Below, piece after piece: positions 13,791 through 49,612 of a DNA stretch of 64,000 bases. Below the pieces are notes generated by a model that saw only the letters and a program-made list of their open reading frames with translations, did not search any database and was not told the DNA's origin. Position numbers and translations under genes: made by a program. The stretch comes from Cyanophyceae cyanobacterium. GTDB lineage: Bacteria > Cyanobacteriota > Cyanobacteriia > Cyanobacteriales > JBHJGN01. The stretch spans positions 1 through 64,000 of the forward strand of contig JBHJGN010000009.1 in assembly GCA_050331735.1 (NCBI GenBank), written 5' to 3'. Position 1 is the stretch's first letter, and the number at the start of each line of letters is the position of its first letter.

Positions 13791-14675
13791 TCAGTTTAAC
13801 TGCCTGGATTGGGCGATTAACGCCTCGAAGCCAGCCACGATATCTAGTAGTTCGTTGGTGATTGTGGTTTGTCGTTGATGGTTAAATTCTGCTTGCAGGG
13901 CAGTCAAGCGATCGCTAATATTCTTTTCGGCAATCTGCATTGAAGCAAGACGGCTGGCATTTTCGCTGGCTAAAGATTCGGCACAGGCGCGGTAAAGAGC
14001 CACAAAGAAGTACTGACGGAATAAAGCGGAGGCTAAACGGTCTCGATCCATTGTATAGGTTGGCAGACTGCGGGAGGACCACGGTTGCTGCTGTAGCTCT
14101 CGCAAGCGGTCAAGATTGAGAGGAAAGAGCTGCTGCTTTTGCGGAGAGTAGGCAGCGCTAGAGCGAGGATAATTGTGAAAGAGCAGGATGTGGTTAATCG
14201 CGCGCTCTCGTCGCCAGGCTTCGAGAGTAATCACAATTTTCTGGACGATTGGTGTAATTCCGGAAATAGAACTGGGAACGGTAAAACAGACTTCACTCGT
14301 TATTCCGGCGGCTGCTAAACGGTCTCTAATTCTGACCCCCACCGTTAATACTTTGCTACTCCACGGTACTGGTAGAGACAGTGTTTCAATCAACTGAGCG
14401 AGCCGCTCGTTAAACTGTCCGCACAGGCCCTGATCGGACCCAAAAACCACGATCCCGAGGCGGTCAGTTCGAGCAGGCTTTACTCCAATCAAGCTTTCTG
14501 GCGCATTCTTGAGTAAGATTTGTGTGCCCAGTTCTAGGGTTCGATTATACTCGGCTAGAGAAACAACGGCTTTTTCGTACTGGCGAATACTCACCGCCGC
14601 CAAAGCTTTCATTGTTTTGACAACGGATTGCAGATCGTTGGCGCTGTCAATTTTGCGTTTGAGTTCTAGAGTCAT
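13791..14675 (-). CDS. atpG: N-ATPase gamma subunit
   Basis: SVVKTMK, SDQGLCG, SENASR and RQTTITNELLDI motifs; last gene of the operon. Confidence 0.93.
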   Translation of the reverse strand: MTLELKRKIDSANDLQSVVKTMKALAAVSIRQYEKAVVSLAEYNRTLELGTQILLKNAPESLIGVKPARTDRLGIVVFGSDQGLCGQFNERLAQLIETLSLPVPWSSKVLTVGVRIRDRLAAAGITSEVCFTVPSSISGITPIVQKIVITLEAWRRERAINHILLFHNYPRSSAAYSPQKQQLFPLNLDRLRELQQQPWSSRSLPTYTMDRDRLASALFRQYFFVALYRACAESLASENASRLASMQIAEKNISDRLTALQAEFNHQRQTTITNELLDIVAGFEALIAQSRQLN

Positions 14676-14719
14676 CTCGCTTCGCTCCCATTGAACCTTG
14701 AATCAGTAAAGTTAAACAA

Positions 14720-16252
14720 TTATTGTTCCGGTTTAGCAGGTCTGATGGCGAGTTGGGCAATATCTAAGAGAGCTTGGCGATCGCCCTCGCTCAACGGTCC
14801 CCCTTCAATTCGTTGGCAGACATCGGGTAACTGACGCTGCACTGCCTGACGGACCACCCTTTGAGCGGTTGCCATTTGCTCCAACGGAACTTCATCAAAG
14901 CTCCCGGCATTCACCGCTAGCAGCACCGCGAGCTGTTCTGCTACGGGGATAGGCTGATATTGAGGCTGCTTAAGGACTTCCCGGACGCGGCGACCTCGTG
15001 CTAGGGTTTTTTGGGTGGCTTCGTCGAGGCGCGTACCAAAGCGAGAGAAAGCCTCTAGTTCTTCAAACTGAGAGTAGATCAGCCGCAGGTCGCCAGCCAC
15101 AGCTCGGTAGGCTTCAAGCTGCGTTTTACCGCCAACGCGAGAGACGGATCTGCCGATATCAATCGCCGGGAGTATCCCTTTCTGAAACAGGTCGGGGGTG
15201 AGGTAGATTTGACCGTCAGTAATTGACACGAGGTTTGTCGGAATATAGGCAGAAAGGTTTTGAGCTTCGGTTTCCACGATGGGGAGTGCCGTTAACGAGC
15301 CGCCGCCGAGTTCTGGGCGCAGATGGGTAGAGCGCTCGAGCAGACGTGCATGGATGTAGAAAATGTCGCCCGGAAACGCTTCTCGTCCCGGTGGACGGCG
15401 CAGCAGTAAGGAGAGTTCTCGATAGGCGCGAGCATGCTGAATCAGGTCGTCGTAGACAATCAGCACGTCCCGTCCCTGTTCCATGAAATATTCTGCCATC
15501 GTGGTAGCGGCATAGGGAGTAATGTACTGCAAGCCCGGTGGGGCAACTCCTGGGGCAACCACCACCAAGCAATAGTCCATAGCTCCGCGAGTACGCAGGT
15601 CAGCAATCAGTTTGGCCACTGCCGAACTGCGTTGACCAATGGCACAGTAAACGCAGATGACGCCTTGCCCTTTCTGGTTAAGAATCGTATCGAGGGCGAT
15701 CGCTGTTTTCCCCGAAGCGCGATCGCCCAAAATCAGTTCCCGCTGTCCGCGTCCAATGGGGACCAGCGCATCGATTGCGGTAATTCCGGTTTGCAAGGGA
15801 ACCGTCACGGGAGCGCGCTCCATAATCGCTGGGGCTTCTCGCTCTACCGGACGACGCTCGCTAGCAGGAACTGTCCCGCGATTATCTAACGGACGACCCG
15901 TGGCATCTACCACTCGCCCCAACAACCCCTCTCCCACCGGAGTATCGAGAACTTTCCCGGTGCGGTACACTTCACACCCGGCCTTGAGGGAGTCACTATC
16001 GTCGAGGAGAATGATGCCTACTTCGCGATCGAGGTTGAACGCCATGCCCAGGCGATCGCCGGGAAACGTCACCAATTCCTCTGCCTGCACGTTAGGCAGC
16101 CCCACCGCACGAGCGATTCCGCCTCCTAGGTAAGTCACCGTACCGACTTCTTGAGCCTGTAATTCTGGGTGGTAGTTAGCTAAAACTCGCCTAGACGTAG
16201 TAAATGTTGCGTTTAGAAGTGCTTTTAGGGAGTCAGGACTAGAATTCATCAT
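14720..16252 (-). CDS. atpA: N-ATPase alpha subunit
   Basis: [27 protein letters not shown] and SITDGQI motifs. Confidence 0.95.
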
Positions 16253-16337
16253 CAGTCAGTAGGCTACAAGTTTTTTGAAGGAAAGGGTCAGCAGTCAATG
16301 ATTAGTAGGTATTAACAAACCTGATTCCCGCCAACCA

Positions 16338-17114
16338 CTAACGACTCACTAAAGCTTTTCTATCAATACTGTTCTTTAAGGCTCTTTCGGTTTCTGCCTC
16401 CAACTGGTTTAAATATTGCTCTAGGTTCCAGGCAATTTTGTAGCCGCGATCGCGCAGCTCAATCCCACACAGCGGCTCAGCTCCGGTTTCAAACCTGATC
16501 TCAGTCCCAGCAATTTGTCCTTGAACGGTTTTAATAAGCTGGTCGCGTTTTTCTGATGAAATTGGAAAAGTGCTGCAAATTACCACTTCATGAGGCTCTC
16601 TAGAAGACCTTATTAGCTGTAGCTGCTCGTCATTTAGGTGCTGAAGACGTTCAATAAAGGTTGTCACAATCTGCTCTTCAAGACTGACACTCGCTAGGTC
16701 GCCCAAGGCGCGGCGGACTGTTATGGTAATTTGCTGACTCGCTCGCTGCCGAAACTCCTCTAAAAAAGCCTGCTGTTCCCGCTGGAGCGCCTCAATCCAC
16801 TGGGTTCGCAGCGCCTCTACTTCTGCTTGTGCCTGTCTTAGCAGCCTTTGTTTCTCTTGTTCCACCTGCTGTTGGGTGCGAGCAAACCATTCTTCCCGGT
16901 GAGCCTCCAAGTCTTGCTGCTGATGGCGATACCGCTCTGCTTCCTGCTGCGCCTCTTCCCGCATTGCTGCGCCTTCAGAGAGACGTTGAGCAATTCGCTG
17001 CTCCCGCTGCTCCATCGCTTTCACAATCGGACCATATAAGAAATGCTTGAGCAGAGCAACGAGAATGAGAAAATTAACAATTTGGGCGACGACGGTAAAC
17101 CAATCAATCAGCAT
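16338..17114 (-). CDS. atpF: N-ATPase b subunit (long, with delta-like C-terminal part)
   Basis: MLIDWFTVVAQIVNF TM segment, long coiled coil, C-terminal CGIEL...W. Confidence 0.9.
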   Translation of the reverse strand: MLIDWFTVVAQIVNFLILVALLKHFLYGPIVKAMEQREQRIAQRLSEGAAMREEAQQEAERYRHQQQDLEAHREEWFARTQQQVEQEKQRLLRQAQAEVEALRTQWIEALQREQQAFLEEFRQRASQQITITVRRALGDLASVSLEEQIVTTFIERLQHLNDEQLQLIRSSREPHEVVICSTFPISSEKRDQLIKTVQGQIAGTEIRFETGAEPLCGIELRDRGYKIAWNLEQYLNQLEAETERALKNSIDRKALVSR

Positions 17115-17117
17115 AGC

Positions 17118-17396
17118 TTAGCTTCCCGCTTGTGTGACAACGTAGTTCCAAAAAGGATTGGCAAAAATCAGAATTAAAGAAATAACGAAGCAATAAATGG
17201 CCGTAGATTCCACCAGAGCTAACCCGACAAACAGAGTACGGGTGATGGTGTTGGCTTCATCTGGCTGTTGCGCTAGAGAACTCAACGCCTGAGACAAAGC
17301 TCGTCCCTCGCCCAAAGCCGGAGCTACCGCGCCAATCGCCGTCGTCAATCCGGCAGTAAAAATTGAAACGATACCAATGAGAACAATATTATCCAC
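17118..17396 (-). CDS. atpE: N-ATPase c subunit with Na+-binding signature
   Basis: ALGEG (Glu in helix 1), QQP loop, ESTAIY in helix 2. Confidence 0.93.
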   Translation of the reverse strand: MDNIVLIGIVSIFTAGLTTAIGAVAPALGEGRALSQALSSLAQQPDEANTITRTLFVGLALVESTAIYCFVISLILIFANPFWNYVVTQAGS

Positions 17397-18075
17397 GCTC
17401 AGTGTCTCCTTCGCGTACTTGAGTAGCGGCAGCGATATAAACCATTGCCAGAATCGAAAAAATGTAGGCTTGAATCAGTCCCGTCAATAGCCCCATAGCC
17501 TGCATAATAATCGGAAATACCAGCGGTGCGACGGAAAGCAGAATTCCCACAATCATTGTCCCACTCATCACGTTCCCAAACAGACGAACTGCTAGAGCCA
17601 ATGTACGGGAAAATTCACCAATGATATTAAAAGGCAGCATCACGGGCGTTGGCTCTAGGTACTGTTTTAGATAGCTTCGCCATCCTCGCTGACGAATACC
17701 GTACAGGGGAACGGCGAAAAAGACACAGATAGCTAGAGCCGCCGTCGTCGAGAGGGAACCCGTAGGAGGCTGGTAGCCAGGAAGAATGCTGAGGAGATTG
17801 GAGATGGCGATAAAGATAAACAGCGTCCCGACAAAGGGGAGATAAGGCTCAGGGGTTTGCTGACTGACTTCTCGAATTTGCTGGTTAATGCCAAGCACCA
17901 GGACTTCGAGTAGGTTTTGAGGGCGGGAGAGGCGCACAGAAGCCGAGAGCTTGTGGGTCACCAGCCAGGAAAACAGCACCAAAAAAGCCATCACCAGCCA
18001 GGTGAAAATTAGGGTGGCATTCAGGGAAATAGCTCTCCATTCCCATAGCACAATCTGATCGGGAGTTAAATACAT
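17389..18075 (-). CDS. atpB: N-ATPase a subunit
   Basis: SRTLALAVRLFGN and IQAYIF motifs; ATG 18075 follows an AGAGGAG RBS. Confidence 0.93.
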   Translation of the reverse strand: MYLTPDQIVLWEWRAISLNATLIFTWLVMAFLVLFSWLVTHKLSASVRLSRPQNLLEVLVLGINQQIREVSQQTPEPYLPFVGTLFIFIAISNLLSILPGYQPPTGSLSTTAALAICVFFAVPLYGIRQRGWRSYLKQYLEPTPVMLPFNIIGEFSRTLALAVRLFGNVMSGTMIVGILLSVAPLVFPIIMQAMGLLTGLIQAYIFSILAMVYIAAATQVREGDTERG

Positions 18076-18076
18076 T

Positions 18077-18376
18077 TCATCTCCTCTGGATAGCAAGACG
18101 GCACAACAGCCCCCGAACTAACAAAAAGCCGAAGACACAAAAGAGTAACGAGGTAATTTGTTGTTCTGCCCCTTTAATGATGAGATAAAAAACGAGCAGG
18201 CTGACACTTAATCGCAGGCAGAAACTGCCCAGAAGCCAGCGAAACGGATGTTGAGTCGCAAGAAGTCGCTGCACCGTGAACCACAGCCCGCCAAAGTAGA
18301 ATAAACCGATGCTCACTCCAATCGCAAACGCGATTCCTAATAGAGGCAGTTGACGTACATTGAGGATTGCTACCAT
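18077..18376 (-). CDS. atpR: N-ATPase AtpR subunit
   Basis: Small membrane protein with FYFGGLW.TV and SFxLR; sits just before atpB. Confidence 0.8.
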   Translation of the reverse strand: MVAILNVRQLPLLGIAFAIGVSIGLFYFGGLWFTVQRLLATQHPFRWLLGSFCLRLSVSLLVFYLIIKGAEQQITSLLFCVFGFLLVRGLLCRLAIQRR

Positions 18377-18465
18377 GAAATGCGAAGTTGAGCAGTTGAT
18401 TTTAAAAAAGACTACAGTTTTTATCTCTTATTTCTTGAAAAGCACCCGTGTTAGTAGCTCAAATT

Positions 18466-18921
18466 TCACTCTTGCCGAGGTGGAATAGAAAAGTCGGCAA
18501 AGGAACGCACGTCATAAGGAGTAGTTGCTAGAGCCTTAATTAACTTTTGGTCTAGAGTTAACAGAGGGACGCTAACACGCTCTGAAAGATCAACGTAAGC
18601 TCCATCGTAAGCGGTAATGTTATGGGTTAAACCAATACTCGTTGCTTCTGCCATTAGTTCTGCCGTTGAAGTAGTTCTGAGCGGAAAGGCTTTTAAACTT
18701 ACCAAATCTTGTTGAGTTTCGGTTGGTGTATAGAGTTCAGCGCGGACATATTTCCAAAAAATATTGGCAATTTCAATATAAAAAAGATCGGGGATATAAA
18801 TAGCAGTTTGAGGAGTGTACAACGTGTCGAACAGTTGTCTGACTTTTGAAGTTAGCGGATCTTCAATAAATCGTTTGATACCTACGTTGGCATCAATGAC
18901 ACATCTTAAGGCTTTACTCAT
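18466..18921 (-). CDS. vapC: PIN-domain (VapC-like) toxin
   Basis: VIDAN, EIAN, YDGAY and LLTLD acidic PIN motifs; ATGA overlap with the upstream antitoxin. Confidence 0.85.
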   Translation of the reverse strand: MSKALRCVIDANVGIKRFIEDPLTSKVRQLFDTLYTPQTAIYIPDLFYIEIANIFWKYVRAELYTPTETQQDLVSLKAFPLRTTSTAELMAEATSIGLTHNITAYDGAYVDLSERVSVPLLTLDQKLIKALATTPYDVRSFADFSIPPRQE

Positions 18922-19214
18922 CGTTCCCGATCTTCTCGAATCAAATTTGTACTATCGAGGAAACCGTGTTTTTTGGGGTTGAGGCGACGACGTTGATCGA
19001 TTTGAGCCTGCAGTTGGGGGACGGCTTGACGGCGTTCTTCCCAAGCGGGGGCGGTTTCAGGAGAAATCAGGAATTTCAAAGGTGTCTGTTTTTGCAATGC
19101 CTGTTGGAGCAGACTAATGGCTTGGTCATTGATAGTCTGATTCTTTTGTTTGGCAAGCTGTTGAATTTGCTCCATCAGTTCATCGGGTAGATTTTCGAGA
19201 ATGAGTCTAGTCAT
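18918..19214 (-). CDS. Putative FitA/VapB-like antitoxin
   Basis: MTRLILENLPDEL RHH-like N-terminus, DSTNLIREDRER C-terminus; translationally coupled to the PIN gene. Confidence 0.75.
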   Translation of the reverse strand: MTRLILENLPDELMEQIQQLAKQKNQTINDQAISLLQQALQKQTPLKFLISPETAPAWEERRQAVPQLQAQIDQRRRLNPKKHGFLDSTNLIREDRER

Positions 19215-19324
19215 GAGCTTAAGTTTCTTTTGATTGGAAATTCTGGATGCTTTTATTATGGAATTGAGGGAATAAGTTTGACCTGGTAGCAAGCTGGCGA
19301 TCGCGCTCCAGCATCCTAACGCAA

Positions 19325-20545
19325 TTATGGAATAGTCTCTGGAAGCTGATGCCACCGTTGCAGCAGTGGACGCAGCAGCAGCGGCGACAGCAGACAAGTC
19401 GCTGCCGATACCAGCACTAGAGCCGCAAAGACGGAGGGTGGAACGGCCCACCCCAGTTGTTGTCCTCGTTGTAGAATTACCAGGGTAATTTCGGCTCGGG
19501 GAAGCATACTGACGCTCAGTAATACCGCACTCGAATAGCCTGCTGTGACTAACGCAAGGCTGCCAATGCCGATGATTTTCCCCGCAATAGCGATCGCCAG
19601 CAAAATACTGCCCAATCCCCAGGCGGTACCCAGTAACAGAGGGTCAATCTGCAACCCCACGTGAATGAAAAAAAACGGCACCAAAAAATCATAGAGCGTC
19701 CCAAAAGACGCATCCAGCTTCACCGCCTCTGGGTCGCGGCTAAAGGCTAATCCGGCAAAAAACGCTCCTACCGCTACTGAGAACCCTAGAAACCCAGCTA
19801 GTGCCGCAATCACAATTCCGGTTCCAGCGACCATCAACATTGGGTCGGGAGGCGGCTCGATGCGCTCAAAAAAACGGGTCATGGGACGCTCGAGATAGCG
19901 AAAGAATACAAAACACAATGTGCCAAACAGCAGCACCTTGAGCAGGAAAGGACCAACGACCTCTGCCAGCACGGGGAGAAACGCCTGACTTCCCAGGGAA
20001 GGAATAATGGCAAAGAGCAGAGACATTAAAGCGATCGCCGCGATATCGTCCATTTCAGCAATATCTAACAGCAGCTCTCCGTTGGGGGAATGGAGCGCTT
20101 TTTCCTCTTGCCACACGCTCACCGAAATCCCCACGCTAGTGGCAACGAGAGCAATGGCGATCAGCAGGCTCGTAATGAGGTTTAAGTTCAGCAGCCAATA
20201 AGCCGCCCCAAACCCTAGCAACCCACTCCCCAATACGTCTCCGAGAAGAATCACGCTAGCGCGGGGAAGCTGGCGCAGCAGTCCCGCTAAGTTACTTTCT
20301 AACCCCACCCGGAATAGTAGAGCAATAATGCCCAACTCCGCCAAAAAACGGTAAACTTCCAGCACCGGAGAACTCAAGAACCATCCCTCCCCATCAGCGA
20401 GTCGCATCCCGAAGCCGAAGAGAAGATAGCCGACTAATGCCGGAACTCCGACGCGCTCCAAGCCTGCCTTGATGAGGAGGGCGAAGATAATCGTGATCCC
20501 AACGAGCAGCACCAGGAGTAACTCCGCATCCACACTAGTCGCCAT
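19325..20545 (-). CDS. Cation:proton antiporter (CPA2-type)
   Basis: About 12 TM segments; LFRVGLES, ATSVGIS, EMDDI, PFFF and MLPRAE motifs. Confidence 0.88.
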   Translation of the reverse strand: MATSVDAELLLVLLVGITIIFALLIKAGLERVGVPALVGYLLFGFGMRLADGEGWFLSSPVLEVYRFLAELGIIALLFRVGLESNLAGLLRQLPRASVILLGDVLGSGLLGFGAAYWLLNLNLITSLLIAIALVATSVGISVSVWQEEKALHSPNGELLLDIAEMDDIAAIALMSLLFAIIPSLGSQAFLPVLAEVVGPFLLKVLLFGTLCFVFFRYLERPMTRFFERIEPPPDPMLMVAGTGIVIAALAGFLGFSVAVGAFFAGLAFSRDPEAVKLDASFGTLYDFLVPFFFIHVGLQIDPLLLGTAWGLGSILLAIAIAGKIIGIGSLALVTAGYSSAVLLSVSMLPRAEITLVILQRGQQLGWAVPPSVFAALVLVSAATCLLSPLLLRPLLQRWHQLPETIP

Positions 20546-20846
20546 GACTCTCCCGCTCGATCCAGTACCAAGCGTTGAGGCATCCTAAAATAACCCCGAC
20601 AACCAGCAGCATCAGAGTCCAGGAATAGCGACTGGCGATATGGGTATCGATCCATACCCCTAAAGCAATTCCTAATAAAGCTGGAAGCGCCACCGACCAT
20701 CCCACCATGCCAAACATCCCCAAGCCGAACCACAGGCTTTTTGACTCTCGGCGGGCTTCAATTTTCCGGTTGGCTTTTGTTGCTACCTGATACGGAAACG
20801 TCTTCTCCCTGCGGGGTTTGTTGGCATCTGATCGCGGCTTAGCCAT
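20535..20846 (-). CDS. atpQ: N-ATPase AtpQ (AtpZ/AtpI-like) protein
   Basis: GLGMFGMVGWSV, GVWID and GCLNAWYW motifs; follows atpC. Confidence 0.85.
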   Translation of the reverse strand: MAKPRSDANKPRREKTFPYQVATKANRKIEARRESKSLWFGLGMFGMVGWSVALPALLGIALGVWIDTHIASRYSWTLMLLVVGVILGCLNAWYWIERESHGD

Positions 20847-21222
20847 GACCGAGCTCCTGAAAATAGCGCACAATATTAATCTCAAACTTAGCCAGAGCCG
20901 AACGGGTCAGTCGTTCTCGTTCGTCTAGGTCTTGAAACTGCGATATTACCGTTTGCTGAAGCAATTCTAAGCGATCACTTTGCACAGCGCTGCGGGTGGA
21001 AACGAGCACTTCCTGAGCGCATTTGACTAAAATTCCTTCATCGACCGCCAAAAAGGCTTCTTGTCCTGACGCTTCAAAAATCAGAATTCCCGGCACTAAC
21101 GCCGCTACAAAGTCGATGTGATGGGGCAGTAGGCAAAAGTGACCGTTTTCCGCCTCAGCAATCACTTTATCAACTTCCTGCTCGATCAGGACTTCGTTGG
21201 GAAGCATTACTTTGAGTTTCAT
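20839..21222 (-). CDS. atpC: N-ATPase epsilon subunit (alternative start 21252)
   Basis: GHFCLLPHHIDFV and AVDEGILVK motifs. Confidence 0.9.
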   Translation of the reverse strand: MKLKVMLPNEVLIEQEVDKVIAEAENGHFCLLPHHIDFVAALVPGILIFEASGQEAFLAVDEGILVKCAQEVLVSTRSAVQSDRLELLQQTVISQFQDLDERERLTRSALAKFEINIVRYFQELGHG

Positions 21223-21285
21223 GAGTGAGCTGCTAACGTTCTGCAAATTCATTCAAGGCTTTCCTTCCCGTTGCTAAGAAAGCTC

Positions 21286-22668
<1,383 letters not shown>

Positions 22669-22696
22669 TTAGAAGCAAATCTTAGCAAACTGCTGG

Positions 22697-22849
22697 TTAA
22701 AATTCTGAGGAATGTTGGTCATCGTAAGGATCGCCGCTAAACGGCTGTACGCCGGAGTTTGGGTAGTCATTATCGCTAGAGCTGAATAGCCTAATAATAC
22801 CTTCCCAAACAGATTGCATTGCTTGTTCGAGTCTTTTAAAAACAATCAT
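22697..22849 (-). CDS. atpT: Unannotated 50-aa AtpTheta (Norf1)-like small protein
   Basis: AAGGAGG RBS; MIVFKRLEQAMQSVWEGIIRLFSSSDNDYPNSGVQPFSGDPYDDQHSSEF has an amphipathic helix plus F..D.YP..GVQPF.GD, as I recall for AtpTheta. Below the length cutoff of the ORF track. Confidence 0.7.
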   Translation of the reverse strand: MIVFKRLEQAMQSVWEGIIRLFSSSDNDYPNSGVQPFSGDPYDDQHSSEF

Positions 22850-22878
22850 CTTTGTCCCTCCTTACTGTAAATTGATGT

Positions 22879-23202
22879 TTAATTCTTGCCTAGCTTAGGA
22901 ATATTAACGGTCAGTACCCCATTGATAAGTTCTGCCCGTGCTTGCTCAGGTTGAACGGGAACCTTCACGGGAACCTGGCACTGAAGACGACCGTAATGAA
23001 ATTCTGAAGGAACAATCTCTTGCTCGATACTTTCTGCTGGAGGATGAACTCCCGTAATTGTCACGGATTCGGAAGTGACGTGAACGTTTAAATCTTTGCG
23101 CTCTACTCCTGGCACTTCTGCCTTGAGAATGAGGGCTGTGTCAGTCTCGCTAAATTCGATGGCCGGACACCAGGTTGGCTCTTTGTTGATAATTACCGTC
23201 AT
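22879..23202 (-). CDS. Hsp20/alpha-crystallin family protein (short)
   Basis: W.PAIE..ET, AEVPG, SEFHYG and NGVLTVNIPK motifs. Confidence 0.88.
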   Translation of the reverse strand: MTVIINKEPTWCPAIEFSETDTALILKAEVPGVERKDLNVHVTSESVTITGVHPPAESIEQEIVPSEFHYGRLQCQVPVKVPVQPEQARAELINGVLTVNIPKLGKN

Positions 23203-23269
23203 CGGAGTTGCTTACCTCGATCTTGATGGACTCGCTAAGCAGCGATTAACTTCACTTAGCTTTACTTTT

Positions 23270-23302
23270 AGAGTAGGAAAATATTTTGAGGAACTTGTGA
23301 GG
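23270..23302 (-). promoter_or_regulatory. Direct-repeat box A plus -10 (hsp20-atpT-N-ATPase)
   Basis: CCTCACAAGTTCCTCA-N11-TACTCT, with an extra partial repeat (CAAGTT) upstream. Confidence 0.85.
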
Positions 23303-23341
23303 AACTTGCTGGCAGATGAGGAGACGGTTCGTTGTCTAGAG

Positions 23342-24091
23342 TTACTCAGGGGCGCTGGTGGAACGAAAGCGTTTTTGAGCCATCAGTTCCTCTACATACC
23401 GATACCATGCTGCTATTCCCTCCCCGGTTCGTGCCGATACTTCAAACAGAGTTGCTTGGGGCGACATTGTTTGCAGATGAGAAACCGCCAGTTCCCGCTC
23501 GCACCCAACTGCTTCAGCGATATCAATTTTGTTGAGAATGGCTACCTGGGCCGTTTTAAAAGCTGTTGGATATTTGAGCGGTTTGTCTTCTCCCTCGGTG
23601 ACCGAGAGCAGCACTACGCGCCGCTCTTCTCCTAAATCGTAAGCCGCTGGACACACTAAATTACCAACATTTTCGATGATTAATAAATCGAGGTCGTCGA
23701 GGTGAAGTTTGAGCAGGGCTTGGTTCACCATCTCTGCGTCTAAGTGACAAATGTTGCCTGTTGTTACCTGGACCGCAGATGCCCCTAGTTTTTGCAGACG
23801 CTGGGCATCGTTCTCAGTGGCGAGATCGCCAATAATGGCTCCGATCCGCCACTGACTGCCACAGTCGGTTAGCATTCGTTCGATCAGGGCTGTCTTCCCT
23901 GAACCAGGAGAGGATAAGAAATTGAGAACCGTTAAGCGTTTGGTTTGGAACAGCCGGCGATTCTGTTGGGCAATTTTGTCGTTTTTGGCCAGGATGTCTT
24001 GGTGAACGTCAAGGTGATACTGAACGGGGCGAGCTTGTTTCCCCCGCAGAGCGACGCGCTCAGTAAGGCCACAGCCGCAATCTTGGCACAT
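23342..24091 (-). CDS. hypB: Hydrogenase nickel incorporation GTPase HypB
   Basis: CQDCGC, SPGSGKT, CHLDA, ENVGNLVCP and NKID motifs. Confidence 0.95.
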   Translation of the reverse strand: MCQDCGCGLTERVALRGKQARPVQYHLDVHQDILAKNDKIAQQNRRLFQTKRLTVLNFLSSPGSGKTALIERMLTDCGSQWRIGAIIGDLATENDAQRLQKLGASAVQVTTGNICHLDAEMVNQALLKLHLDDLDLLIIENVGNLVCPAAYDLGEERRVVLLSVTEGEDKPLKYPTAFKTAQVAILNKIDIAEAVGCERELAVSHLQTMSPQATLFEVSARTGEGIAAWYRYVEELMAQKRFRSTSAPE

Positions 24092-24092
24092 C

Positions 24093-24434
24093 TCAAGATA
24101 CCTCCAGCGAAGCTAGCTCTAATTCTCTGCCCTGGAGAATTTGAGTGCTAATGTGGTGGCACTGGGGGCAGGCATGACACCAACCAAAAGGGTGAAACGT
24201 CAGGCAGCAGTGAGGACAATAGCAGGTTACCGGAATGATTTCCAGCTCTAGCTTAGCTCCCTGGGCGATAGTTTCTCTGACAACGACATCGAAGGCAAAT
24301 TTCAGGGCTTCCGGGACGACTCCCGATAGTTCCCCCACGTTAATTTTCAGGCTATGAATCTGCGTTGCCCCCTGATTTTTAGCTTCGGTGAGGGCAATAG
24401 CTAAGGCGTTTTTCATGAGGCTGACTTCATGCAT
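24093..24434 (-). CDS. hypA: Hydrogenase maturation nickel chaperone HypA
   Basis: MHE start, two CxxC, GREL. Confidence 0.95.
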   Translation of the reverse strand: MHEVSLMKNALAIALTEAKNQGATQIHSLKINVGELSGVVPEALKFAFDVVVRETIAQGAKLELEIIPVTCYCPHCCLTFHPFGWCHACPQCHHISTQILQGRELELASLEVS

Positions 24435-24439
24435 CGATT

Positions 24440-24937
24440 TTAAGCACTCGGTTTGGTGGCTGCTAAATTTTGGGTCGGCTGCTCCCTGCCTTGGATGAGG
24501 TAGACAATCTGCTTAAGAGCTTGGGCCATGCCTCGTCTCGCTGTGGGAGAGAGGCGATCGCCTAGCTCAAAATTTGTACCAGGGATTAGTACCCACCAGG
24601 CGGTTGGACAGCGATTATACGCGGTACAGGTGAGGGCTAGTAGCGCCCAAGGGTTACTGGCATGACTGCTCATCATTTTTGAGGAGGAAAAAGAGAGACG
24701 AAAAACCTGAAGGTTTTCGCGAGGCAAAGCGGGGTAGGCATCGACAAAAATGACCTGTTGAGCCGCCGCGATCTCGGCTGCCAATTCTGGCGTAAGCTGA
24801 CGGACAGGAAGCGAGCGCACATCGGGTAAACTCCACTCGTCGAGAACCTGCGCTACCCGTACGCCAACGCCATCGTCGCTGCGTAAATTGTTGCCGTAGC
24901 CGATTACCAGAATTGGAGATGGAGGGGGGTTGGTCAC
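24440..24937 (-). CDS. hoxW: Hydrogenase maturation protease
   Basis: VIGYGNNLRSDDGVG, QLTPEL and IFVDA motifs; within the hox cluster. Confidence 0.85.
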   Translation of the reverse strand: MTNPPPSPILVIGYGNNLRSDDGVGVRVAQVLDEWSLPDVRSLPVRQLTPELAAEIAAAQQVIFVDAYPALPRENLQVFRLSFSSSKMMSSHASNPWALLALTCTAYNRCPTAWWVLIPGTNFELGDRLSPTARRGMAQALKQIVYLIQGREQPTQNLAATKPSA

Positions 24938-25135: not shown

Positions 25136-25168
25136 AAACTACCAAGAAAGTTTGAGGAAGTTGTGAAG
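25136..25168 (-). promoter_or_regulatory. Direct-repeat box B plus -10 (hoxW-hypAB)
   Basis: CTTCACAACTTCCTCA-N11-TAGTTT. Confidence 0.8.
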
Positions 25169-29244: not shown

Positions 29245-29277
29245 AGAGTAAACAAACAACTTGAGGAACTTGTGAGG
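29245..29277 (-). promoter_or_regulatory. Direct-repeat box C plus -10 (CBS-hoxH unit)
   Basis: CCTCACAAGTTCCTCA-N11-TACTCT. Confidence 0.85.
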
Positions 29278-30381: not shown

Positions 30382-30414
30382 AAGGTAAAAAAAGTGTTTG
30401 AGGAACTTGTGAAG
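30382..30414 (-). promoter_or_regulatory. Direct-repeat box D plus -10 (dioxygenase)
   Basis: CTTCACAAGTTCCTCA-N11-TACCTT. Confidence 0.85.
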
Positions 30415-32737: not shown

Positions 32738-32770
32738 AAAGTAGAAAAAAAGAATGAGGAACTTGTGAGG
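32738..32770 (-). promoter_or_regulatory. Direct-repeat box E plus -10 (hoxUY)
   Basis: CCTCACAAGTTCCTCA-N11-TACTTT. Confidence 0.85.
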
Positions 32771-38149: not shown

Positions 38150-38182
38150 GTTATAGAGACATAAATTGAGGAACTTGTGAGG
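38150..38182 (-). promoter_or_regulatory. Direct-repeat box G plus -10 (usp-hoxEF)
   Basis: CCTCACAAGTTCCTCA-N11-TATAAC. Confidence 0.85.
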
Positions 38183-38209: not shown

Positions 38210-38242
38210 CCTCACAAGATCCCCAACTTTTGTTTTTAGGCT
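38210..38242 (+). promoter_or_regulatory. Direct-repeat box H plus -10 (divergent small genes)
   Basis: CCTCACAAGATCCCCA-N11-TAGGCT. Confidence 0.78.
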
Positions 38243-40631: not shown

Positions 40632-40664
40632 GTTGTAAGTTAATAAATTGAGGAAGTTGTGAAG
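40632..40664 (-). promoter_or_regulatory. Direct-repeat box I plus -10 (usp unit)
   Basis: CTTCACAACTTCCTCA-N11-TACAAC. Confidence 0.8.
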
Positions 40665-41943: not shown

Positions 41944-41976
41944 AGAGTAGACAAACAAGTTGAGGAACTTGTGAGG
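41944..41976 (-). promoter_or_regulatory. Direct-repeat box J plus -10 (riboswitch-gifB)
   Basis: CCTCACAAGTTCCTCA-N11-TACTCT; the riboswitch begins about 20 nt downstream of the -10. Confidence 0.88.
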
Positions 41977-43323: not shown

Positions 43324-46245
43324 GTGGTAGAGGCAATTCATACGGCTGTTAACGGAAGAGCCAGATACAAAGTCAAAGAACTTTACCGCTCTAAATCTCT
43401 TGAACACTATCTGGAGCGAGCTCTAGGGAATCAAGAGGGAATTATTAACGTGTCTGCTAGTTCGCTAACGGGCAACATTCTCGTGAGTTTCAACCCAGAC
43501 CGCAGTGCTGCTGAGATTGCCGCCCTGATTCAAGAAAGTGTTTCAGCCTTTGGTCAGCAGGGGAAACAGAAATCTCCTCGAAGGATTGCCGCCACCGTTG
43601 CTGACGCTGAGGAACAGAAAACAGCAGACTGGCATTTGCTGGAACTAGACACTGTTCTAGAAATTCTCCAAACCTCTCAAAAGCAGGGATTATCGAGCCA
43701 GGACGCCGCCGAAAACCTGGCGAAATATGGCACTAATGCTTTAGCGGCATCGCCGTCTCGCTCGGACCTCAGCCTATTGCTCGAACAGCTAGTCACCTGG
43801 CCCGTTGCTCTCCTGGGAGCGGCGGCGGCGGTTTCTTTGGTCACAGGAGGAGTGGCCGATGCCCTGTTGATTGCCGGAGTCGTGGGCATTAATGCGGTGA
43901 TTGGCTATACCACAGAAACTCAGTCTGAAAAAATTATCCGTTCGCTGCAAAGCGAGGGACCGCGAACGGCTGTAGTGATTAGGGACGGCGATCGCCTGGA
44001 AGTAAGTACCGAAGCGGTAACGGTGGGAGACCTGTTGGTGCTGCAACCGAACAGCTACGTCGCCGCCGATGGCAGGCTTGTTGAGGCGGAAAACTTGAGC
44101 GTTGACGAATCTGCCCTCACCGGGGAAAGTATTCCCGTCACTAAAAAAACGGTTTCCCTTTCCGGTGCAGAGCTGTCGCTAGCAGACCGCAGCAATATGA
44201 TTTATCAGGGAACGTTCATTACGGTTGGTCAAGGGCTGGCGGTGGTGGTGGCAACGGGTCAGTTGACCGAACTCGGAAAAATTCAGAGCCTGGTCAGCGC
44301 CGCCGAATCTATAGACACCCCCTTACAAAAGCAGCTAGACCAAGTGGGTTCTCAACTCGTCCTGCTCTGCGGCGGAGTTTGCGCCTTAGTCTTCGGCGTG
44401 GGGCTGCTGCGGGGCTATCGTTTGCTTCCGATGCTCAAGTCTGCTATTTCCCTGGCGGTGGCTTCAGTACCCGAGGGTTTACCGACCATTGCGACCACAA
44501 CGCTCGCCCTTGGTATCCAGGATATGAGGCAGCGCAACATCCTTATTCGCGGCATTAACGTCGTCGAGGCGCTGGGGTCAATTCAAACCATCTGCCTGGA
44601 TAAAACTGGCACAATTACCGAGAATAAAATGATCGTTGAAGAAGTTCGTTTAGGGAGCGGCACTCTCAAGCGAGCGGACGGGCAGTTGCGGAGGACAGCT
44701 ATTAACCCCGACCAGGACAAAGAACTCCTCAAGCTTATTGAGATCGCAGTCCTCTGTAACGACGCCAACATAACCACCAAAGACGGTAAGAATGAGGTCG
44801 AGGGGTCGGCAACGGAGAACGCCCTGATTGAGCTAGCGCTCGTCGCTGGCGTGGATGTTGTTGCCCTTCGAGGAAAATATCCTCGCCTCAAAACCTATTC
44901 CCGTACCGACAGCCGCAACCGGATGACCACGATTCATCAAAGGTCGCGTCAGCTATTAGTTGCCGTTAAGGGCAGCCCGGAAGAAGTGTTAGCACTGTGT
45001 ACCTCCCAGCTCAAAGCCGGGACGGTCGTTTCCCTCGCAGAGGAAGAGAGACAAACCATCGAGCTGGCAAACGAGCGTCTGGCTGGTCAAGCGCTGAGGG
45101 TGCTTGGAGTGGCCTATACCACAATTCAACATCTAGAAGCAGAGCCGGAAGAGCTGACGTGGGTAGGACTAACGGGAATGGCAGACCCGATTCGGGAAGG
45201 AGTGTCAGAGTTGATGGCCGGGTTTCACCAGGCAGGCATTAAGACAGTCATGATCACAGGCGATCAGAGTCCTACCGCCTATGCGATCGCCAAAACGCTG
45301 CATCTTAGCCGTCACCACAAGCTAGAAATTCTCGATGCCTCGGCTCTGGCTCATCTCGACCCGGAGAAGCTCCAGGCACTCTGCAACAGAGTAGACGTAT
45401 TTGCTCGCATTAGCCCTGCCGATAAGCTACAAATTGTGCGCGCTCTCCAGGCTACGGGCAAGATTGTAGCGATGACTGGAGATGGGATTAATGACACTCC
45501 AGCTCTGAAAGCCGCCAATGTCGGGATTGCGATGGGGTCCGGCAACGCTGATATCGTACGGGAGGTCGCCGATGTCATTATTAAAGACGACCGGCTGCAA
45601 ACGCTCATCGATGCCGTCAGTCGCGGGCGCACGATTTACAACAACATCAGAAAGTCAGTTCATTTCCTGCTGTCTACTAACCTCAGCGAGATTGTAGTAA
45701 TGACGATCGCCACGGCTCTTGGTCTGGGGGAACCTCTCAACGCCATGCAGCTTCTCTGGCTCAATTTAGTAACCGATATTTTTCCAGGGCTGGCACTCTC
45801 CCTAGAACCTCCAGAACCAGACATCCTCGCTCAAGCTCCCCGCGATCCAGACGAGCCCATCATCAAGTTTTCTGACTTTGAGCGCATTGTCTTTGAATCA
45901 GGCATCATTTCTCTGGGGGCTCTCAGTGCTTACGGCTATGGTCTGTTTAAATACGGTCCAGGCTCTCAAGCTAGCACGATCGCGTTTATGAGTTTAACGG
46001 GAGCTCAAATCCTGCACGCGATGAGCTGCCGTTCGGAGCACAGCTTGTGGGCGCGTGACCCGCTACCGGCTAACCCCTACCTAGACGGAGCGATCGTTGG
46101 TTCTTTAGCGCTCCAGCTTCTGCCCCTCGCCGTTCCGGGGTTAGGCAAAATTCTGCACCTTGCTCCCCTCGCTCCTGGGGACTGGTTCATCATTGCTCTT
46201 CATGCGGTGCTGCCGCTGGCAATTAACGAGAGTGCCAAAGAATAA
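43324..46245 (+). CDS. P-type cation-transporting ATPase (type II-like) with N-terminal HMA2-like domain
   Basis: TGES, PEGLP, DKTGT, KGSPE and TGDGINDTPAL motifs; N-terminal GRARYKV...TGNILV. Confidence 0.92.
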   Translation: MVEAIHTAVNGRARYKVKELYRSKSLEHYLERALGNQEGIINVSASSLTGNILVSFNPDRSAAEIAALIQESVSAFGQQGKQKSPRRIAATVADAEEQKTADWHLLELDTVLEILQTSQKQGLSSQDAAENLAKYGTNALAASPSRSDLSLLLEQLVTWPVALLGAAAAVSLVTGGVADALLIAGVVGINAVIGYTTETQSEKIIRSLQSEGPRTAVVIRDGDRLEVSTEAVTVGDLLVLQPNSYVAADGRLVEAENLSVDESALTGESIPVTKKTVSLSGAELSLADRSNMIYQGTFITVGQGLAVVVATGQLTELGKIQSLVSAAESIDTPLQKQLDQVGSQLVLLCGGVCALVFGVGLLRGYRLLPMLKSAISLAVASVPEGLPTIATTTLALGIQDMRQRNILIRGINVVEALGSIQTICLDKTGTITENKMIVEEVRLGSGTLKRADGQLRRTAINPDQDKELLKLIEIAVLCNDANITTKDGKNEVEGSATENALIELALVAGVDVVALRGKYPRLKTYSRTDSRNRMTTIHQRSRQLLVAVKGSPEEVLALCTSQLKAGTVVSLAEEERQTIELANERLAGQALRVLGVAYTTIQHLEAEPEELTWVGLTGMADPIREGVSELMAGFHQAGIKTVMITGDQSPTAYAIAKTLHLSRHHKLEILDASALAHLDPEKLQALCNRVDVFARISPADKLQIVRALQATGKIVAMTGDGINDTPALKAANVGIAMGSGNADIVREVADVIIKDDRLQTLIDAVSRGRTIYNNIRKSVHFLLSTNLSEIVVMTIATALGLGEPLNAMQLLWLNLVTDIFPGLALSLEPPEPDILAQAPRDPDEPIIKFSDFERIVFESGIISLGALSAYGYGLFKYGPGSQASTIAFMSLTGAQILHAMSCRSEHSLWARDPLPANPYLDGAIVGSLALQLLPLAVPGLGKILHLAPLAPGDWFIIALHAVLPLAINESAKE

Positions 46246-47887: not shown

Positions 47888-47920
47888 CCTCACAAGTTTC
47901 TCAAATTGTTTCTTTACTGT
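47888..47920 (+). promoter_or_regulatory. Direct-repeat box K plus -10 (small genes-ldh-ppsA)
   Basis: CCTCACAAGTTTCTCA-N11-TACTGT. Confidence 0.85.
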
Positions 47921-48290: not shown

Positions 48291-48584
48291 ATGATGACAG
48301 TCTTTTGGCAACCTCTTAAGCAGAAGAGACGTCAGCCGGATAAGGAGCCATCGCGGGTCTCGCGGCTGGAGAAAATTAAGCGTTTGATTAGCAGTCTAAA
48401 GCTAAACTGGCTTGATCGTCTGGCCAGACGCATAGGAGCAGAATCAGAGCCACAGGTTTGGGAGAAACACGACCGACACGGGCACACCTTCTTCAAAGTG
48501 TACGACCCGCAAAGCGATCGCTACCTATATTTGAGTTCGGAAGATGAAGTCCGAGTTTGGCTCGAAGAACGCTACTCTCATTGA
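48291..48584 (+). CDS. Hypothetical protein of a type common in cyanobacteria
   Basis: AGGAGG RBS; EPQVW...DR.G.....YDP......SSE.EVR.WLEERY. Confidence 0.75.
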
Positions 48585-48616
48585 AACGGGCAGTTGTTTC
48601 ACAACGGAGCCGGTAT

Positions 48617-49612
48617 ATGTTTGATTCGTTGTTTACCCCTCAACTCGCCTCCCTCCCAAAAACCGATACCATTCGCCGTCGCAAAGGAGTTGTTATTGGG
48701 GCTGGGCAAGTGGGAATGGCCTGTGCCTACTCACTGCTCATCCAAAATATCCTCGACGAAATGGTGCTGGTAGATGTCAATCGTGCCAAGCTCGAAGGGG
48801 AGGTGATGGACTTAGTGCATGGGTTGTCTTTCGTGGAGCCAACCATCGTGAGAGCAGGAACGGTAGCCGACGGGCAGGGAGCCGATTTAGTCATGATTAC
48901 CGCTGGCGCTAAACAAAGACCCGGAGAAAGTCGATTAGACCTGGTGCAGCGTAACACCGAGCTGTTTAAAGAACTCATTCCCGAAGTGGTGCGATACTGC
49001 CCTGACGCGATTCTCCTCGTCGTTAGCAATCCGGTGGATGTCCTCACCTACGTTTCTCTGCATCTTTCCGGTCTTCCTCCTGCACGAGTGATTGGTTCAG
49101 GAACGGTCCTTGATACCGGACGGTTTCGCTATCTGCTAGCTGACAAACTTCAGCTCGATCCCCGCAGCCTGCACGCCTATATTATTGGCGAACATGGCGA
49201 TAGCGAGGTGACGGTTTGGAGTAAAGTCAATGTGGCGGGGACTTACCTTTGTGACGGCGGTTGGTCCGATAGCCCGACAGCAAACAACGAGCAACTGACC
49301 GCTATTTCGGCCCAGGTCAAAAACGCCGCCTATGAAATTATTCAGCGTAAAGGAGCCACTAGCTACGCCATTGGCTTAGCGATCGCTCAAATTGCCAGAG
49401 CCATCCTAAGAGACCAAAACCGAGTCCTGACCGTGAGTACCCTCATCAATGGTGCCTACGGTCTCCACGATGTTTGTCTAAGTTTACCAGCGGTGGTCAA
49501 TCGCCAAGGAGTTACCCGAGTGCTCAACCTCTCCCTATCTGAATTAGAAAAAGAACAGCTTCGACAGTCTGGAACCGGTCTGCGCCAGGTGATTGAGCAA
49601 TTGAATCTCTAG
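48617..49612 (+). CDS. ldh: L-lactate dehydrogenase
   Basis: [35 protein letters not shown] and KGATSY motifs. Confidence 0.92.

Follow-up and report, generated by a model that had tools for sequence, protein, structure and literature searches.

An AtpTheta homologue encoded directly upstream of a Na+-type N-ATPase operon in a cyanobacterial genome, with a putative promoter motif in common with genes for hydrogenase and fermentation

Introduction

AtpTheta is described as a small, soluble cyanobacterial protein that inhibits ATP hydrolysis by the F-type ATP synthase under a weak membrane gradient, acting through an N-terminal amphipathic helix and a central acidic cluster; its strongest reported contacts are with the a and c subunits rather than with the F1 catalytic interface (10.1101/2021.07.30.454416). 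So far, it is known from a single model strain, in which its gene stands alone and is induced in darkness. IF1 of mitochondria and the zeta subunit of alpha-proteobacteria are described as comparable small blockers of F-type ATPase hydrolysis at low gradient, but they have no sequence relation to AtpTheta, and IF1 is stated to have no prokaryotic homologues (10.1101/2021.07.30.454416). The N-ATPases of phototrophs, encoded in operons of the order atpDC-QR-BEFAG, have been proposed to operate when the membrane potential is low, such as in darkness; the same source describes a continuing debate over whether those of cyanobacteria pump salt or are synthases kept in reserve for low potential, and treats AtpTheta separately (10.64898/2026.10.01.756066). 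This work describes a gene that brings the two systems together: an AtpTheta homologue (atpT, 22697..22849, minus strand) located immediately upstream of the atpD gene of a Na+-type N-ATPase operon. The gene lies in a 64,000-nucleotide (nt) stretch of DNA, referred to here as the window, which comprises positions 1 to 64,000 of contig JBHJGN010000009.1 from a Cyanophyceae cyanobacterium (assembly GCA_050331735.1).

The locus departs from both described systems in its setting. In Synechocystis sp. PCC 6803, atpT (formerly norf1) is reported as a free-standing gene with its own terminator (10.1101/2021.07.30.454416, PMC9241938), whereas the window gene sits between hsp20 and N-ATPase atpD and has no terminator. 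The N-ATPase operons of 10.64898/2026.10.01.756066 list no small inhibitor gene in the part of that source available, whereas the window operon is preceded by atpT and by an hsp20 gene encoding only an alpha-crystallin domain (ACD). The original prediction held this linkage to be undescribed, and a full-text literature search agrees: it retrieved no link between AtpTheta and N-ATPases, with a homologue table of 318 genomes (which may include some of the present ones) lying outside its reach. The main text of the AtpTheta preprint mentions neither N-ATPases nor synteny (10.1101/2021.07.30.454416), and the sole text found to name both AtpTheta and the N-ATPase leaves them unconnected in its accessible portion. 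Also new here is a promoter motif common to the hsp20-atpT-N-ATPase, hox, hyp, ldh, usp, and CBS units.

The open reading frame (ORF) is a member of the AtpTheta family, and it forms part of a tight hsp20-atpT-N-ATPase array behind a conserved motif. Reading further from sequence comparison, we consider it probable that this ORF is the canonical atpT of its genome, that it and the Na+ N-ATPase are expressed together within a dark or anoxic regulon, and that its product acts as a brake on the main FoF1. In what follows, G000 denotes the genome of the window, other G numbers denote compared genomes, and L numbers denote loci.

Results and Discussion

The micro-ORF upstream of N-type atpD encodes an AtpTheta homologue

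The atpT ORF comprises 50 codons and is preceded, 7 nt 5' of its ATG, by the Shine-Dalgarno sequence AAGGAGG (22857..22863, minus strand). It is separated by 29 nt from the hsp20 stop codon (22879) and by 28 nt from the atpD ATG (22668). The original prediction had placed an ORF of this length and with this ribosome-binding site between hsp20 and N-type atpD, 28 nt from the latter, and its coordinates were reproduced. The ORF is recovered by ORF listing at a minimum length of 30 amino acids (aa), and its translation, P0001 (MIVFKRLEQAMQSVWEGIIRLFSSSDNDYPNSGVQPFSGDPYDDQHSSEF), is present as a record in the protein collection.

The resemblance to AtpTheta put forward in the original prediction is now confirmed by direct comparison with the reference protein. 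The reference gene was located via the norf1 probe primer (PMC5126843, Table 1), which was searched in five genomes and gave one exact match, at G182:C1:298939-298962(-). This match falls within the published coding sequence at 298826-298972 on the reverse strand (PMC5126843, PMC9241938), the translation of which is a 48-aa protein, P0121. In a pairwise BLASTP comparison, P0001 and P0121 share 17 of 40 residues (43%) without gaps from residue 1, with an E value of 1e-11; the authors of the AtpTheta study accepted homologues at a BLAST E value of ≤1e-5, most of which were 39 to 70 aa long and without a transmembrane helix (10.1101/2021.07.30.454416). Comparison of P0121 with a family profile built from 11 homologues (alignment A1; consensus, MxxxxWxxxxxxYxWEGVxRIFSPxDDDYPxTGVQPFEGEP) by hhalign gave a probability of 99.2% and an E value of 9.9e-20. 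The two proteins are further alike in length (48 aa in PCC 6803, 50 aa here), in acidity (pI 4.05 and 4.23, respectively), in possessing an N-terminal helix followed by coil, and in the common residues E16 (acidic), F22 (aromatic), and P30, which are among the conserved positions named in the preprint, together with the core YP..GVQPF.G. Across an alignment of 46 sequences that includes the reference, F22, P30, G33, V34, P36, F37, and G39 are invariant. On these comparisons, the membership of P0001 in the AtpTheta family is established, with departures from the family at two conserved positions, S13 and N27, which are weighed below.

The N-terminal amphipathic helix followed by LFSSSDNDYPNSGVQPFSGDPY, as described in the original prediction, is present as quoted, and the helix is backed by two lines of evidence. 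The hydrophobic moment of residues 2 to 22 is 0.589 in P0001 and 0.610 in the reference, compared with 0.251 ± 0.124 in shuffled sequences; the P0001 value was reached by 0.55% of 2,000 shuffles. In addition, an AlphaFold2 model of P0001 (mean predicted local distance difference test score, 72.9) shows a helix at residues 2 to 22 and coil for the remainder. This helix is the sole hydrophobic stretch of the protein and has a mean hydrophobicity of 0.16, by which P0001 is judged to have no transmembrane segment.

In the 61 related genomes surveyed, P0001 was matched at an E value of ≤0.001 in 56, as an open frame of approximately 50 to 60 codons, and the 11 homologues used for the profile came from these genomes. 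The profile retrieved 1,839 proteins at an E value of ≤0.001; by comparison, a single-sequence search of an index of 5.8 billion proteins returned the query only, a result that reflects the limit of the word index. Wherever the matches carry names, the family is confined to cyanobacteria. No match to P0001 was found among Pfam and NCBIfam models, and a search of the Protein Data Bank for relatives of the family at an E value of ≤1 found none. Because the reference protein P0121 likewise has no Pfam family above cutoff, the missing family model says nothing against membership in AtpTheta. That the ORF is a chance reading frame or noncoding spacer is an idea that its length of only 50 codons and its lack of a Pfam or NCBIfam match might invite. 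We give it next to no weight, since the homology extends across hundreds of cyanobacteria with seven residues invariant in 46 sequences, the ribosome-binding site is strong, and P0121 itself matches no Pfam family. The 56 related genomes, the profile search, the reference BLASTP, and the 46-sequence alignment count as having already refuted it.

Several AtpTheta homologues of 44 to 51 aa are named "isochorismate synthase" or "nicotinate phosphoribosyltransferase" in public records (P0031, P0034, P0051, P0079, P0085, P0088, P0100, P0101, and P0109). These names look like mislabels acquired through annotation transfer, and many public AtpTheta homologues appear to carry wrong names.

A putative promoter motif common to the atpT array and to hydrogenase and fermentation units

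A 17-nt motif, CCTCACAAGTTCCTCAA, lies at 23286..23302 (minus strand), 83 nt 5' of the hsp20 ATG, and consists of two direct repeats of approximately 10 bp. At 10 nt after the motif, alignment of the motif sites reveals a −10-like element, TACTCTAAAAGT (23264..23275, minus strand). In the alignment of 15 motif sites from G000, a TACTnTAAAAGT-like sequence recurs at a fixed distance, 10 to 11 nt after the motif, and we regard TACTCTAAAAGT as a candidate promoter element. The motif core, CCTCACAA, was found 5' of ACD-only hsp20 genes in 16 of 16 loci, where the upstream consensus reads TCCTCACAA(A/G)TTC(T/C)TCAAA, followed by TCTAAAA at a fixed distance. Allowing up to 2 mismatches, the window contains 10 motif sites against 0.06 expected, with at most 1 seen in 100 shuffles, and the whole G000 genome contains 41 sites compared with 5 for a reversed control.

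The genes downstream of the window sites were identified by Pfam searches and ORF reading. Eight of the sites are on the minus strand. The site at 23286-23302 precedes hsp20-atpT-N-ATPase; that at 25152-25168 precedes a 165-aa ORF followed by hypA-hypB, and by eye this ORF, which has no Pfam match, looks like a hydrogenase maturation protease. The remaining minus-strand sites precede CBS-CBS-hoxH (29261-29277), a metallo-beta-lactamase-fold gene (30398-30414), hoxU-hoxY-DUF4342 (32754-32770), usp-hoxE-hoxF (38166-38182), usp-x-usp (40648-40664), and a 170-aa ORF followed by a dienelactone-hydrolase-like gene (41960-41976). On the plus strand, sites precede DUF1816 (38210-38226) and a 97-aa ORF followed by a lactate/malate dehydrogenase gene (47888-47904). 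Exact motif sites also occur on other contigs of G000, where the downstream genes were read from ORFs and Pfam was used to check the receiver domain alone. These sites lie before another hsp20 paralogue of the ACD-only type, before genes for a Lon-like protein and for a response regulator with a receiver domain only, before a dihydroorotate-dehydrogenase-like gene located after the terminal part of a gene resembling pyruvate:ferredoxin oxidoreductase (PFOR), and before an ORF that precedes an FtsH-like gene. Judged by gene content, the motif-bearing units look like a regulon of fermentation, hydrogenase, and stress-protein genes. A search of sequencing runs for DNA of the locus returned a DNA run, which may be the source of the assembly, and no RNA run.

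The motif also accompanies atpT in other genomes. In N-ATPase-linked loci without hsp20, it lies 90 to 141 nt 5' of atpT (L030, L034, L038, L060, and L084), and in L015, L054, L055, and L057 it is more distant, located level with hsp20 or 5' of it. Overall, 27 of 91 atpT loci have the motif in the 1.3 kb that precede the gene. Two of the loci belong to named isolates: in Waterburya agarophytonicola KI4 (L040), the order is motif, hsp20, one further ORF, and atpT, and in Gloeocapsopsis crepidinum LEGE 06123 (L042), the motif is 279 nt 5' of atpT. Genome-wide counts are 25 in G340 and 16 in G159 (control count of 0 in each); the motif is not abundant in G010 (3, compared with 2 in the control) or in G182 (no matches). 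In G159, atpT (C81:544-684) and N-type atpD (C230:72307-73653) are located on separate contigs, and an exact copy of the motif closely precedes each of them (C81:415-431 and C230:73691-73707, respectively). A site with one mismatch lies 194 nt before N-type atpD in G223. The presence of the motif before both genes, whether adjacent or unlinked, suggests that atpT and the N-ATPase are co-regulated at the level of a regulon in this group, irrespective of adjacency.

There is a parallel in Synechocystis, where SigE and cyAbrB2 are reported to govern the induction of hox and nifJ as cells pass into dark microoxic conditions (PMC11368403) and atpT is reported to be controlled by cyAbrB1 and cyAbrB2 (PMC9241938). 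The likeness does not extend to the motif, which has no matches in the reference genome, G182. For regulons of hox, ldh, and the dark or anoxic response, the literature as seen in PMC11368403 names SigE, cyAbrB1/2, and LexA for Synechocystis, with no similar motif in the portion of the source available.

The motif-rich island of the window contains other genes as well. These include a P-type cation ATPase gene with N- and C-terminal cation-ATPase domains (43324-46245, plus strand), the lactate/malate dehydrogenase gene (48557-49612, plus strand), a gene for a phosphoenolpyruvate (PEP)-utilizing enzyme (PPDK_N; 49886-52381, plus strand), and, between the hoxEF and hoxUY units, a gene for a Uma2-family putative endonuclease (PF05685; 32913-33461, minus strand). 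The P-type ATPase, S-adenosylmethionine synthetase, PEP-utilizing enzyme, DUF29, and receiver-only response regulator genes of the island were examined in the search for a DNA-binding regulator, and none was a candidate.

Linkage of atpT and N-type atpD across genomes

N-type atpD was detected above cutoff in 65 of 401 genomes sampled from the order. For 66 other N-type atpD loci of this sample, up to 2.5 kb of 5' sequence was searched with the family profile; 1.7 kb or more was available for 60 of them, and six had less than 800 nt to the contig end. Among the 60, atpT was found directly 5' of atpD on the same strand in 2 (G029 and G340) and divergently oriented in 1 (G227) and was not found elsewhere. 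A second survey covered the 80 best family loci of a species-level genome collection, a set that is biased toward P0001-like sequences rather than random. Here, N-type atpD lies directly 3' of atpT in 11 of the 80 loci: L015 (= G340), L030, L033 and L034 (one assembly), L038, L050 (= G029), L054, L055, L057, L060, and L084. Several of the linked loci come from metagenome bins, atpD is fragmented in L033 and L054, and related genomes are not independent. A same-strand hsp20 homologue stands 5' of atpT in 15 of the 80 loci (14 at 51 to 58% identity and L049 at 37%), and L036 has a partial hsp20 match further upstream of atpT. The full hsp20-atpT-N-atpD array recurs in L015/G340, L055, and L057. 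The survey of N-ATPase synteny that the original prediction called for thus finds that the linkage recurs but is rare.

In a tree of 77 N-type AtpD sequences, all 11 linked rows fall within one clade of 25 that has a Shimodaira-Hasegawa-like approximate likelihood ratio test (SH-aLRT) value of 100. The other 14 rows of this clade are unlinked, with upstream sequence missing for G278, and the sequences nearest to the window AtpD are those of G010 (84% identity, unlinked) and G029. In the AtpTheta tree, which is based on 50 columns and poorly resolved, nearly all copies linked to hsp20 or the N-ATPase belong to a group of 27 (SH-aLRT, 94); P0001 has no firm placement, and its top identity, 56%, is to the hsp20- and N-ATPase-linked copy of L015. 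The left flank of linked loci varies between hsp20 (the window and Xenococcaceae-type loci), mgtE (G029), and the motif alone, and the close relative G023 has mgtE-atpT without an N-ATPase. A single ancestral juxtaposition followed by transfers and losses and a small number of independent events cannot be told apart.

Downstream of atpD, the linked loci are not uniform. At L227 (6615-11102 on G340 contig C145), hsp20-atpT-N-atpD gives way to an opposite-strand ORF of 198 aa and then to AT-rich sequence up to the contig end, and no atpC was found within 3.1 kb after atpD. Likewise, no atpC match was found in the 2 to 2.5 kb after atpD in L015, L030, L055, and L057. In L034, approximately 900 nt, including a fragment of an atpD 3' end, lie ahead of atpC.

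With regard to transcription in the window, a scan of the minus strand from 21200 to 24500 found no terminator-like site, and the 28-nt gap between atpT and atpD is too short for a terminator. Because the gaps of 29 and 28 nt are short, no minus-strand terminator-like site is present, and a conserved motif lies 5' of hsp20, co-transcription of hsp20, atpT, and the N-ATPase is plausible and, for the window, likely; it does not appear to be general to the adjacency. Many Xenococcaceae-type loci have a conserved intrinsic terminator approximately 40 nt after atpT, consisting of AAGCTAGTAGAAA...TTTCTACTAGCTT and a T-run (L015, L016, L022-L025, L028, L029, L034, L038, L040, L054, L057, and L058). 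The same hairpin follows atpT in hsp20-atpT loci without an N-ATPase and is therefore present with or without N-type atpD downstream. No such hairpin was found after atpT in the window, L007, L030, L055, L060, or L084, while one was detected 3' of atpT in 53 of 79 unlinked loci. The scan is crude, as it detected only a weak hairpin at the reference locus L160 despite the published terminator-like stem-loop there.

These data bear on the idea that atpT and the N-ATPase operon are neighbors without functional coupling. On that account, a free-standing type of atpT landed beside, or traveled with, a horizontally moving N-ATPase operon whose atpD has its own start signals. The rarity of the adjacency across the order and its patchiness among close relatives speak for such an account, and since all linked N-type AtpD sequences belong to the same clade, its recurrence could go back to one ancestral event that was then inherited or transferred. 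The G340 locus, with its opposite-strand ORF and missing atpC, marks these loci as prone to rearrangement. Against this, the same motif precedes atpT and N-type atpD even where they are unlinked (G159), the 28-nt gap of the window has neither room nor a signal for a terminator, and by our own estimate (1 to 2 copies among approximately 5,000 genes) the chance of finding atpT just 5' of N-type atpD is approximately 3e-4 per locus. We therefore rate uncoupled proximity as improbable, the lowest of the explanations that accept atpT as a real gene.

Copy number and the likely target of AtpTheta

A second atpT elsewhere in the genome was one of the points that the original prediction wished to see examined. 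The profile search of G000 gave two real matches, the atpT ORF itself (E value, 9.7e-26) and C11:162943-163044 (E value, 8e-12). The latter, on contig C11 (locus L159, 2264-2554, plus strand), encodes a 97-aa protein in which an N-terminal Nif11 domain (PF07862; E value, 9.4e-12) is fused to the AtpTheta core. The search thus produced a Nif11-AtpTheta fusion but no second canonical copy, and by these comparisons the ORF before atpD is the sole canonical short AtpTheta of G000. The fusion architecture was seen in six further proteins of 94 to 97 aa, one of which is named [quoted passage not shown] in one source. Among the linked genomes, the N-ATPase-linked atpT is the only copy detected in G029 (89% complete), and one additional AtpTheta copy is present in each of G340 and G227.

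The original prediction offered two roles for the protein: a dedicated regulator of the N-ATPase or a silencer of the thylakoid FoF1 while the N-ATPase is on. As a whole, the AtpTheta family cannot be N-ATPase specific, because it is far more widespread than the N-ATPase. The notion of a dedicated regulator finds no support, given that the family is present in nearly all relatives searched, mostly without an N-ATPase, that G000 has no other canonical copy, and that the linked copy is the sole one in G029; it is weakened further by the terminator between atpT and N-type atpD in 5 of 11 linked assemblies. A related possibility is that the in-operon AtpTheta binds the N-ATPase itself, instead of or in addition to FoF1, and either limits the drain of ATP by the Na+ pump or biases the enzyme toward synthesis at low potential. 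Several features are consistent with this: atpT is 28 nt from N-type atpD and is equipped with a strong ribosome-binding site, 11 assemblies from a single N-ATPase subclade share the adjacency although their left flanks vary between hsp20, mgtE, and the bare motif, P0001 is closest to the hsp20- and N-ATPase-linked copy of L015, and the partners reported for AtpTheta are the a and c subunits, of both of which the N-ATPase has homologues. On the other side, G000 has no separate canonical copy to serve FoF1, and none at all was detected in G029; most N-ATPase operons have no nearby atpT, and most genomes with AtpTheta have no N-ATPase; terminators part the two genes in five linked assemblies; and, in the weakly supported 50-column tree, the linked copies form no resolved clade apart from hsp20-only copies. 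Binding to the N-ATPase is thus unlikely in our estimation, although less so than mere proximity.

Braking of FoF1 while the N-ATPase is on fits better than a dedicated N-ATPase regulator, given that in G000, G340, and G159 the same motif precedes both atpT and the N-ATPase. In the sequence of events that we propose, one transcript would carry hsp20 and atpT and, as a minimum, the first of the N-ATPase genes. Darkness or anoxia, in which respiration fails to hold the proton gradient, would induce this transcript alongside the genes for fermentation and hydrogenase. AtpTheta would then stop the main H+-type FoF1 from consuming fermentative ATP, and the Na+-type N-ATPase, together with the cation/H+ antiporter encoded in its operon, would take over the energizing or the Na+ clearing of the cell membrane. 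By analogy with the reference system, the published block of FoF1 hydrolysis would fit this setting. A shared motif would also predict when the N-ATPase is made, namely, alongside a brake on the main ATP synthase.

A number of observations weigh against this reading. P0001 has S13 where an aromatic residue is expected and N27 where an acidic residue is expected, thereby deviating at 2 of the 5 published conserved positions, and a histidine at position 27 is reported to abolish inhibition (10.1101/2021.07.30.454416). The same study terms positions 13 and 27 "widely conserved" rather than invariant; in P0001, W15 is near S13, and D26 and D28 flank N27. D27 is present in at least 90% of the 46 aligned sequences, and the homologues of L013 and L017 also have N27. 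The adjacency itself is rare: of the 61 loci that could be assessed in the 401-genome sample, 3 have atpT directly 5' of N-type atpD in the same orientation, and close relatives within the linked clade are unlinked (G010, G087, G159, G223, G316, and G399). G029 has the atpT-N-atpD adjacency without the motif there, and its genome contains 1 motif match in total. In five of the 11 linked assemblies (L015/L104, L034, L038, L054, and L057), a hairpin (ΔG, −12 to −15) and a T-run lie approximately 40 nt 3' of atpT, and in these assemblies atpT and N-type atpD are probably separate units. Finally, a Pfam-based search of the motif-rich island found no gene for a DNA-binding regulator.

A broader scheme can be put forward with more reserve. 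It is conceivable, if doubtful in its entirety, that mat-dwelling cyanobacteria of this group operate a conserved night program, for dark and anoxic hours, under one motif, in which the energizing of the membrane switches from the proton FoF1 to the sodium N-ATPase. AtpTheta, produced within the transcript or regulon of the N-ATPase, would lock FoF1 and possibly tune the N-ATPase, the ACD-only Hsp20 would be a dedicated partner, and ATP would come from the activity of the hydrogenase, lactate dehydrogenase, and PFOR-linked genes. If this were true, the cyanobacterial N-ATPase would gain a defined physiological role, and AtpTheta would gain a second context. In any case, the 17-nt motif offers a defined DNA bait toward the regulator.

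Architecture of the N-ATPase operon and its flanking genes

The operon downstream of atpT lies on the minus strand throughout. It begins with atpD (beta; 21286..22668), which scores 801 bits against TIGR03305 (cutoff, 752), followed by atpC (epsilon; 20839..21252), with 132.9 bits against TIGR03166 (cutoff, 100.1), and by atpQ, encoding the ATPase_gene1 small membrane protein (20535..20885; TIGR02230, 132.8 bits; Pfam PF09527). Further downstream are atpR (18077..18376; Pfam AtpR PF12966, E value of 4.9e-20; TIGR03165) and, at 13791..18096, atpB (a), atpE (c), atpF (b), atpA (alpha), and atpG (gamma), which match TIGR03306, TIGR03322, TIGR03321, TIGR03324, and TIGR03323, respectively, all above their cutoffs. 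Seven alternate F1Fo models are therefore matched above cutoff, atpQ and atpR are both present, and the beta and epsilon genes lead the operon. No delta-like ORF was found in 13791-22668 by ORF and Pfam reading, and the b subunit is long (258 aa). In the N-type c subunit, E30, E63, S64, and Y68 are invariant in 13 sequences, which on sequence grounds points to a Na+-binding motif as defined in 10.64898/2026.10.01.756066. In each of these respects, namely, beta and epsilon first, atpQ and atpR, no delta, a long b subunit, and a c subunit with the Na+ motif, the window operon resembles the N-ATPase operons described in that source.

It differs from them in an insertion between atpQ and atpR. At this position (18466-20545), the operon is split by a gene for a CPA2-type cation/H+ antiporter (19325..20545, minus strand; Pfam Na_H_Exchanger, E value of 3e-44; TIGR00932 below cutoff), the start of which overlaps the atpQ end by 11 nt, and by a pair resembling a ribbon-helix-helix (RHH) antitoxin and a PIN toxin (18466..19190, minus strand). 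In this pair, the PIN match scores 25.4 bits (cutoff, 23.6), and the RHH_5 match, at 24.6 bits, is below its cutoff of 26. In G010 (L235), the nearest N-ATPase relative, approximately 900 nt occupy the antiporter and RHH/PIN position and have no match to those genes.

Upstream of atpT, hsp20 (22879..23202, minus strand) encodes a 107-aa protein with a match to Pfam HSP20 (PF00011; E value, 5.9e-11) at residues 19 to 104. Its reading frame is closed upstream, so that no N-terminal arm is possible and the protein consists of the alpha-crystallin domain alone. A close ACD-only paralogue is encoded on contig C39 (locus L258, 1096-1419, minus strand) behind the same promoter motif. Many Xenococcaceae-type loci have hsp20 homologues of 107 to 112 aa 5' of atpT; in some of these loci, approximately 700 nt separate hsp20 and atpT, and in L005 this interval contains a 199-aa ORF with a Germane domain (PF10646).

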